A stretch of 8,688 nucleotides of DNA from NCBI RefSeq assembly GCF_003334335.1, contig NZ_QOWQ01000068.1. The stretch is one strand, 5' to 3'. The notes below the pieces were generated by a model. That model worked only from the letters and a program-made list of their open reading frames with translations. It did not search any database and was not told the DNA's origin. This document shows positions 7,197 through 7,486 of this stretch, piece after piece. The translations under genes were made by a program, and so were the position numbers. This stretch comes from Escherichia coli. GTDB lineage: Bacteria > Pseudomonadota > Gammaproteobacteria > Enterobacterales > Enterobacteriaceae. The stretch's first letter is position 1, and the number at the start of each line of letters is the position of its first letter.

Positions 7197-7486
7197 GGTG
7201 TTATTCCCGATGCTTTTTGAAGTTCGCAGAATCGTATGTGTAGAAAATTAAACAAACCCTAAACAATGAGTTGAAATTTCATATTGTTAATATTTATTAA
7301 TGTATGTCAGGTGCGATGAATCGTCATTGTATTCCCGGATTAACTATGTCCACAGCCCTGACGGGGAACTTCTCTGCGGGAGTGTCCGGGAATAATTAAA
7401 AACGATGCACACAGGGTTTAGCGCGTACACGTATTGCATTATGCCAACGCCCCGGTGCTGACACGGAAGAAACCGGACGTTATGAT

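Follow-up and report, generated by a model that had tools for sequence, protein, structure and literature searches.

A conserved segment of about 105 nt, predicted to fold into an interrupted hairpin rod, was found at positions 7312-7416 on the plus strand of an 8,688-nt stretch of Escherichia coli DNA (contig NZ_QOWQ01000068.1; hereafter the window), within the 290-nt interval between the genes bor and ybcV (7197-7486). The element was conserved in related phages, had a fixed polarity, showed compensatory changes within its fold, contained no conserved open reading frame (ORF) and was separate from the bor promoter. Judged from the aligned sequences, there is about an even chance that it acts in cis as a plus-strand RNA structure of the late transcript, where the lysis genes give way to the packaging genes. 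This interpretation was adopted because substitutions preserve the fold, and do so best on the strand of the Q-antiterminated late (pR') transcript; we infer that the element acts as RNA on the plus strand. Put more tentatively, it might be an undescribed RNA element of ~105 nt, shared by several hundred lambdoid phages including lambda and Shiga-toxin (Stx) phages, which would act in cis or via a loop-binding partner on the processing or stability of the late transcript.

Conservation and distribution

The covariance model R1, built on the four-helix structure described below (P1-P4), had its sole match in the window at 7312-7416 on the plus strand (106.8 bits, E 2.4e-28), and alignments and blastn searches gave the same element, which matches ~46868-46971 of lambda (J02459). 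Taken as a whole, the interval 7197-7486 had exact counterparts (100% identity) in some E. coli chromosomes and in phage PhiR26_1; its identity was 99.7% with lambda J02459 46753-47041 and 98.6% with the DLP12 prophage of K-12. In blastn searches of the phage collection the full 290-nt interval was common only to lambda-like phages; a sub-segment, at query positions ~113-223, was found at 72-84% identity in many phages in which the neighbouring DNA did not align. Identity of the element across phage and plasmid records ranged from 72 to 100%. The phi21 copy as query matched at least 432 phage records (Escherichia, Stx-converting, Shigella and Salmonella ES18 phages), and a divergent copy matched at least 609 plasmid records, mainly of conjugative IncF plasmids. 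The element is common to lambda, DLP12, Stx phages, phi21, ES18 and other lambdoid phages. When eleven loci were aligned (alignment A1), the edges of the block were sharp on both sides and the flanks were unrelated, and the borders were likewise sharp in two larger alignments of 37 (A2) and 56 (A3) distinct copies.

A degenerate anchor pattern was searched in 100,044 genomes (one per species) and was found only in Escherichia species, apart from two kinds of match. Near-identical copies occurred on short contigs or metagenome-assembled genomes labelled as unrelated taxa, which look like contamination, and three further matches were attributed to chance. The initial annotation had remarked that the known backbone annotation leaves the interval unexplained, and this was borne out: 7197-7486 corresponds to no annotated feature in lambda J02459, in the curated MG1655 record (NC_000913.3) or in the E. 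coli chromosomes listed as matching the full interval. Full-text searches with the element sequence, or with borD/ybcV together with small RNA (sRNA), found no description of the element in the non-subscription literature. We regard it as a new candidate among structured elements of a well-known general type; no Rfam family, annotation or paper was found for it.

Predicted fold and compensatory changes

RNAalifold predicted an interrupted rod, the apical part of which was slightly revised by hand to give the four-helix model. From base to tip, the rod consists of P1 (7 bp) and P2 (10-11 bp), with an internal loop between them, and of P3 (5 bp), which a second internal loop separates from P2 and which the small hairpin P4 caps. 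P1 and P2 together comprise 17-18 bp and are broken by a 5/7-nt internal loop. In P1, the 5' arm GAATCGT (7318-7324) pairs with the 3' arm ACGATGC (7402-7408). Five of these pairs were invariant; pair 8-97 was U·G (30), C-G (12), U-A (10) or, in four lambda-type copies, A·G.

The central stem, P2, is the inverted repeat to which the initial annotation had drawn attention. The repeat was confirmed as fully complementary arms TATTCCCGGA (7330-7339) and TCCGGGAATA (7385-7394) separated by 45 nt, although the spacer, described as GC-rich, had a G+C content of 56% by direct count, which is only moderate. In the model, the 5' arm of P2 (TATTCCCGGAT, 7330-7340) is the left repeat extended by one U·G pair, and the 3' arm (GTCCGGGAATA, 7384-7394) contains the right repeat. 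By itself the repeat was statistically unremarkable (not significant): dinucleotide-shuffled windows contained a mean of 1.07 perfect 10-nt inverted repeats with spacers of 3-100 nt, with at least one in 55% of the shuffles, and one such repeat was found in 3% of shuffles of the 290-nt interval alone. It was counted as real because it was conserved and covarying in related phages and not because of the shuffle statistics; the initial annotation had named a lack of conservation in related prophages as grounds for refutation, and the outcome was the opposite.

Changes on both sides of a pair were seen in four of the 11 pairs of P2 (C-G to G-C; C-G to U-A or A-U; U-A to C-G; G-C to A-U). The C-G to G-C change distinguishes the window, with CCCGGA/TCCGGG, from most phages, with CCCGCA/TGCGGG. 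YDC107-type copies carried TTTCCG/CGGAAA, and the U·G intermediate was common. The change from U-A to C-G was found in ES18 and in locus L308, which also showed the G-C to A-U change.

The register of P3 is uncertain. The P3 arms CACAG (7351-7355) and CTGCG (7374-7378) can be paired in the register given here, while RNAalifold favours a register shifted by 2 with a bulge, and the variant of locus L064 was accommodated in both. P4 (7356-7365) is formed in the window by CCC, the loop TGAC and GGG. Its stem was kept in other copies with the loops GACG, TGAC, TTAAT or GACA; the whole hairpin was swapped for CCAG-ACA-CTGG in locus L048 and deleted in Ss-VASD-type copies. A possible pairing between the P4 5' arm and the 3' tail was T-A in the lambda type and G-C elsewhere, which amounts to a single lineage split.

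Among the 56 sequences of A3, 97.7% of the pair cells were paired, compared with 29-65% when the 3' partners were slid by 1-3 columns. Both-side changes occurred in five pairs (14 cells), four of them in P2. In 0 of 500 shuffles was the alignment matched in its covariation score or in its count of doubly changed cells, and A2 behaved likewise; related sequences lacking any structure can also beat this control. The covariation analysis across homologous prophages suggested by the initial annotation thus revealed fold-preserving changes on both sides of five pairs, at low sequence diversity. The element appears to be kept for its fold, as judged from these substitutions. Of the three proposals of the initial annotation (borD promoter or operator, small RNA, micro-protein), only an RNA structure found support, and in altered form, with the repeat as one helix of a probable ~105-nt fold; the element most likely acts within the late transcript and less likely as an independent small RNA.

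Several unpaired stretches were nearly invariant, namely AUUAAC, GAGUG and AAUAAUCAAAAA. The A-rich linker ATTAAAA between P2 and P1 (7395-7401, plus strand; A3 columns 85-91) was nearly invariant across the 56 sequences. Its conservation exceeds what pairing would need and suggests a sequence-specific partner. According to the model, P1 and P2 should be paired and the AAUAAUNAAAAA and AUUAAC stretches should be unpaired.

Strand of the fold

When the same pairs were counted on each strand, 97.3% were paired on the plus strand and 86.6% on the minus strand, and the consensus energies were -17.29 and -8.08 kcal/mol, respectively. The extended set contained 46 G·U cells versus 9 C·A cells in P2, not counting the terminal U·G pair, which is invariant. 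The G·U alleles were common and spread over lineages, and the C·A alleles were mostly singletons. This pattern of substitutions softly favours the plus strand, which is the strand read by the late transcript.

Genomic context and polarity

Polarity was surveyed in 166 copies of the element in 153 loci, and its orientation was constant in all of them. All tblastn segments of R (118 of 118) and of Rz (457 of 457) were located upstream of the element and shared its strand, and the gene of the small terminase subunit (terS) lay downstream on the same strand in 18 of 18 cases. On the opposite strand, bor was found upstream of 36 copies and ybcV downstream of 40. The fixed orientation relative to R/Rz, bor, ybcV and terS indicates that the element belongs to the lysis/packaging junction of the late operon and not to bor.

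The neighbours differed among lambda, ev099, phi21, Ss-VASD, 933W, 4B5, YDC107, 3W and ES18. The place between Rz and the element is occupied by bor in lambda, 933W, phi21 and 4B5 and by a Rha/Ant-like gene in ev099, Ss-VASD and ES18; in Stx1_14040, Stx2_12E129, CP-1639 and Sakai Sp10 the element begins ~10 nt past the Rz stop codon. On the 3' side it was followed by ybcV, small ORFs, an HNH DNase gene, hnrS or directly by the terminase genes, the arrangement in lambda-type genomes being opposite-strand bor between Rz and the element and then ybcV. The junction is a hotspot that collects virulence-related accessory genes (bor/iss, hnrS and rha/ant-like genes).

In YDC107_1, two direct copies of the element (1501-1606 and 2450-2557, ~950 nt apart) enclosed one phrog_2571 gene, and two direct copies were also present in three viral contigs (L168, L170 and L187). 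It looks as if a gene cassette had been inserted by recombination at the element. In two other viral contigs (L189 and L164) only the initial ~70-80 columns remained, with the left P2 arm among them, and unrelated sequence followed.

The element also accompanies iss on ColV/IncF plasmids. In pAPEC-O2-ColV it was found beside iss (locus L354, 2497-2600) in a phage remnant consisting of an Rz1 fragment (a truncated spanin gene), iss, the element and IS2. The helices of this copy contained one bulge, two C·A mismatches and one A·A mismatch. Such decay would agree with relaxed constraint in a copy that has lost its late operon, but it is weak evidence, coming from a single lineage.

Observations weighing against an RNA function

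Several observations speak against the interpretation of the element as a plus-strand RNA structure. The aligned copies are closely related: columns are 90% identical on average, the effective sequence number in the covariance model is 1.21, and the compensatory changes stem from only a few independent events. The shuffle control is weak, since, according to the tool's own warning, related sequences can beat it in the absence of any structure. Recombination has occurred within the element, as seen in the 933W hybrid with its G·G mismatch and in the shortened copies of L189 and L164, which would fit a purely recombinational role. The number of independent wobble events in P2 was estimated at ~10 for the plus strand and ~5 for the minus strand, and the window copy itself folded at -37 kcal/mol (z -3.8) on the minus strand versus -36 kcal/mol (z -2.1) on the plus strand. 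A search of K-12 Term-seq tables gave no 3' end between borD and ybcV. Finally, a lambda CRISPRi essentiality table lists bor and lambdap78 as non-essential and lambdap79 as 'essential' by CRISPRi, with non-essential in its literature column; on the basis of these entries laboratory plaque formation probably does not require the element region. Because the copies are close relatives, the events few and the shuffle control weak, we call the structure probable rather than proven, and given the low sequence diversity the element stays a candidate.

Recombination as an alternative explanation

The main rival explanation, which we consider unlikely though less so than the others, is that the block serves as a recombination linker, kept as homology for the exchange of modules and accessory genes, with no RNA function and an incidental hairpin. 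Its sharp borders, the unrelated flanks on both sides and the low sequence diversity would be expected of such a linker, as would the variety of accessory genes on either side (bor, rha/ant-like genes, ybcV, hnrS and the HNH DNase gene). The 933W copy joins a lambda-type left half to an Stx-type right half, the breakpoints of L189 and L164 lie inside the block near column 72, and the direct copies in YDC107 and several viral contigs flank a phrog_2571 gene. Homology alone, however, does not predict the compensatory double changes in P2, with their path from C-G via U·G to U-A, nor the excess of G·U over C·A. It likewise does not predict that the apical hairpin is retained with different loop and stem sequences, or that pairing decays in the plasmid copy. 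The two roles are compatible, and the element can be both a linker and an RNA structure.

Minus-strand RNA, terminators and known RNAs

Less probable still is an RNA element of the minus strand, such as a 3'-untranslated region or terminator module, or an sRNA, serving the accessory genes of the opposite strand; in the window this would be the end of the ybcV transcript, upstream of bor. Apart from the low minus-strand folding energy of the window copy, this explanation draws on the position of ybcV, 75-91 nt from the element in 40 copies, and on a weak terminator-like hairpin followed by U5, detected by a consensus scan at 7398-7430 on the minus strand (-10.8 kcal/mol, z -1.65). This hairpin uses the 3' end of the element and lies downstream of ybcV, 60-90 nt past the stop codon; a similar hairpin is placed in the same way in ev099, where ybcV is likewise present. 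It depends on flanking sequence, however, and is absent from the flanks of phi21, 933W and Sakai Sp10. The consensus fold of the minus strand is the weaker one, as described above, and C·A mismatches would arise at three pairs in which U·G predominates or is the only form. Moreover, most copies have no adjoining minus-strand gene; the 933W and Ss-VASD copies are followed by plus-strand terminase genes. Neither strand has a listed 3' end in the K-12 interval; the ends that the K-12 tables do give are a plus-strand one within ybcV, which is Rho-dependent, and a minus-strand one past borD.

The Hfq-dependent sRNA HnrS, which is made from the minus strand ~80 nt from the element in the Sakai prophages Sp9, Sp10 and Sp12, might also seem to favour a minus-strand product. 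Strong Hfq-binding (CRAC) peaks, EcOnc10-12, have been reported (Tree et al. 2014, Table S2), and a 2025 preprint identified EcOnc10-12 as HnrS, an sRNA of 66 nt with an intrinsic terminator that represses hha. HnrS carries a CUUCU seed. Read on the current Sakai sequence, the coordinates of EcOnc10-12 fall on the minus strand of the element in Sp10. This apparent overlap results from the older genome version used in Table S2, which is offset by ~+140 nt from the current Sakai record, as shown by the Rfam match of AgvB. In the Sp10 locus (L147), the element occupies 5757-5862 and hnrS (EcOnc11) ~5941-6006 on the minus strand (about 1946940-1947005 of NC_002695.2), with a stem, U7 and a 15-mer complementary to mazF. 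This 15-mer (CTACCCAATCAGTAC, complementary to the mazF 3' end) was absent from the window even when three mismatches were allowed. HnrS was thus rejected as an identity of the element, being a separate gene ~80 nt away that the window does not contain.

Other known RNAs were likewise rejected. No Rfam 15 family matched anywhere in the window at E<=1, and in a permissive local scan (E<=10) the yeast small nucleolar RNA snR76 scored 13.9 bits against a gathering threshold of 55 (E 2.2), which is a chance match. The families of AgvB, AsxR and STnc100-PasD (RF02702, RF02703 and RF02076) were silent in the window. These sRNAs have a different location, being expected at the accessory-gene site of pR' upstream of the holin gene, and in Sakai Sp10 the same Rfam search did detect AgvB and STnc100, which lie 5 kb before the element. 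A Rho-independent terminator on the plus strand was also rejected, as the repeat encloses 45 nt and is followed by AUUAAAAA, and the consensus scan found no plus-strand site.

Coding potential

The initial annotation had allowed for a micro-protein, encoded by a 27-codon ORF at 7316-7399 on the plus strand (product MNRHCIPGLTMSTALTGNFSAGVSGNN). This ORF does exist, and the AGGTG noted before its ATG was present at 7309-7313; the gap to the ATG, however, is 2 nt, which is too short for a functional Shine-Dalgarno sequence. The ORF is confined to the lambda-type copy and is probably not a gene. Its ATG was present in 4 of the 37 distinct sequences of A2 and in the same 4 of the 56 in A3, all of the lambda type, the other copies having CTG, CCG, TCG, CAG or TTG. 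Frameshifting indels of 1-2 nt had occurred in several lineages, lambda itself being one A short in an A-run. The variation showed no 3-nt periodicity, with minor alleles distributed over columns modulo 3 as 13/9/16, 6/6/6 and 1/5/0 in three indel-free blocks.

Some annotators have called ORFs of 34-60 codons on the minus strand of the element, and hypothetical proteins are annotated across it in some phage records. One minus-strand frame was open in 28 of the 37 distinct sequences; it contained a stop codon in the lambda type and frameshifts elsewhere, and its start was not conserved. These ORFs were rejected, as they had no PHROG match, no conserved start, and stop codons or frameshifts in several lineages.

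The peptide of the 27-codon ORF matched phrog_6954, a family labelled 'Rz-like spanin' (E 9.5e-12). In 933W-type copies a predicted ORF of 81 aa matching this family runs across the element (1608-1853 of locus L005 in 933W, with equivalents in Stx-phage records), and an ORF of this kind is taken to have built the family. It exists because the recombinant 933W copy lost a stop codon. Stx-phage records label it 'Rz-like spanin' or 'hypothetical protein'. The 81-aa sequence had no match in Pfam or NCBIfam, its sole match being the PHROG, which was built from predicted ORFs, and 933W carries its own Rz and Rz1. The label is likely an annotation artefact, and the 81-aa ORF a spurious gene call. With an unconserved start, indels, aperiodic variation and no Pfam or NCBIfam match for the 81-aa version, a small protein-coding gene on either strand is very improbable.

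The bor promoter

The initial annotation had also suggested a promoter/operator region of borD. That the element regulates the bor promoter, as an operator or as another upstream site, is equally improbable, even though 36 copies are found 116-186 bp before the bor start and the element accompanies iss on ColV-type plasmids. In 130 of the 166 copies bor was not nearby, and the promoter signals of bor were found elsewhere. An exact match to KGTTTA-N5-KGTTTA, the PhoP box TGTTTAGGGTTTGTTTA, is located at 7249-7265 on the minus strand, outside the element; such a match was obtained in 0 of 200 shuffles. The candidate -10 sequence TACGAT (7231-7236) lies 12 nt downstream of the box, and the bor ATG is ~35 nt further. 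The pattern of a PhoP-activated promoter, (T/G)GTTTA-N5-(T/G)GTTTA ~12 nt before the -10, is thus found at 7249-7265 and not in the repeat. The PhoP box, the plausible -10 and the bor leader (7231-7265) all fall outside the element, box and likely -10 being at least 46 nt from it. The K-12 gene now named borD, formerly vboR, reportedly appears in work on the Mg2+ stimulon. The vboR gene has been treated as PhoP-regulated and as a member of the PhoP regulon (PMC2789325).

In bor genes of the phi21, 4B5 and iss types, a degenerate box (CATTTA-N5-CGTTTA) was present at the same relative position, and the DNA between box and element was unrelated to that of lambda, so that the spacer differs wholly between lambda-type and phi21-type bor regions. 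A 9-mer (TTATTCCCG / CGGGAATAA) forms an inverted repeat between 7201-7209, in the ribosome-binding region of bor, and 7387-7395, in the right arm of the element. It was absent from phi21-, 4B5- and iss-type bor genes; anti-Shine-Dalgarno pairing with bor was therefore rejected and the 9-mer treated as a chance match. The decayed copy on the plasmid, where iss is present, likewise argues against a role in bor regulation.

Other features of the window

ORFs and similarity searches identified the window as the late region of a lambda/DLP12-type prophage. It contains nmpC (4031-5173, minus strand), the genes of holin, endolysin, Rz and Rz1 (5656-6871, plus strand), bor (6903-7196, minus strand) and the ybcV homologue (7487-8020 as the longest ORF, minus strand). 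In K-12, nmpC is split and annotated as a joined pseudogene; it is undivided in the window, and the prophage was therefore assigned to a non-K-12 DLP12/lambda-like type. Between the convergent genes Rz and bor, a perfect 10-bp hairpin, GAGTTGCCCA-tatcga-TGGGCAACTC, is present at 6871-6896, with a U tract on neither side. The minus-strand 3' end mapped in K-12 at 578444 is inside rzpD, well past the position of this hairpin. A sigma-70-like match, CTGACA-17-TATGAT (10/12), at 7458-7486 on the plus strand is directed into ybcV antisense, and the K-12 tables list the Rho-dependent plus-strand 3' end, antisense to ybcV, at 579345. From this match and this 3' end, an RNA antisense to the 3' part of ybcV may begin at 7458-7486.

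Possible role in the late transcript

If the element is a plus-strand RNA structure, the Q-antiterminated late transcript would cross it on the way to the packaging genes. Several modes of action are conceivable, all of them speculative. By analogy with known hairpins, the rod could be a processing site of the RNase III type, or a barrier to RNA decay that would uncouple the fates of the lysis and packaging segments. The nearly invariant unpaired stretches might also allow docking of a sequence-specific partner.

Lambda is among the best-annotated genomes, yet the block is unannotated in the lambda, K-12 and Stx-phage records examined. If its fold is functional, it would represent a new regulatory feature of the late operon, which also drives Shiga-toxin release and phage lysis, and an RNA element acting on the late transcript would affect the balance or timing of lysis and virion assembly. 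With the covariance model and the coordinates, the idea can be put to a direct test in lambda, and spurious ORF calls at this site ('hypothetical protein', 'Rz-like spanin') are also accounted for.

Comparison with known systems

The sib site of lambda, downstream of int, is an RNase III site that mediates retroregulation, and the N leader also holds an RNase III site. Like sib, the element is a long interrupted hairpin in a lambda transcript, 3' of the genes that it possibly affects; by analogy it would be read only by antiterminated polymerase and would set the stability of the upstream message. It differs from sib and from the N-leader site in having no sequence similarity to them, in belonging to the late operon and not to pL, and in that its rod is broken by large internal loops, the longest continuous helix being 10-11 bp. 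A sib-like RNase III site would call for about two turns of coaxial double-stranded RNA.

Intercistronic hairpins of the REP/BIME type shield upstream mRNA from 3' exonucleases. The element resembles them as a conserved palindromic sequence in an untranslated gap of an operon, for which a role in segmental mRNA stability would be plausible. Unlike REP/BIME sequences, it is present in a single copy per phage, is ~105 nt long with four helices, is unrelated to REP in sequence and has invariant unpaired stretches that suggest a specific partner.

With the Hfq-binding sRNAs of enterohaemorrhagic and enteropathogenic E. coli (HnrS, AgvB, AsxR, PasA-D and STnc100) the element shares its short, non-coding nature and its location in lambdoid late regions at insertion sites of accessory genes. 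Those sRNAs, however, are independent genes with their own starts and intrinsic terminators, mostly on the strand opposite to late transcription, whereas the element has neither a conserved promoter or terminator nor an Rfam match.

Conserved 'boundary' or 'linker' sequences at the junctions of lambdoid modules are an idea of the mosaic-genome literature. The element corresponds to them in being short and conserved, in separating modules that can be exchanged, and in having recombination breakpoints both inside it and close by. Unlike a pure patch of homology, it shows substitutions that preserve a structure, together with a strand bias.

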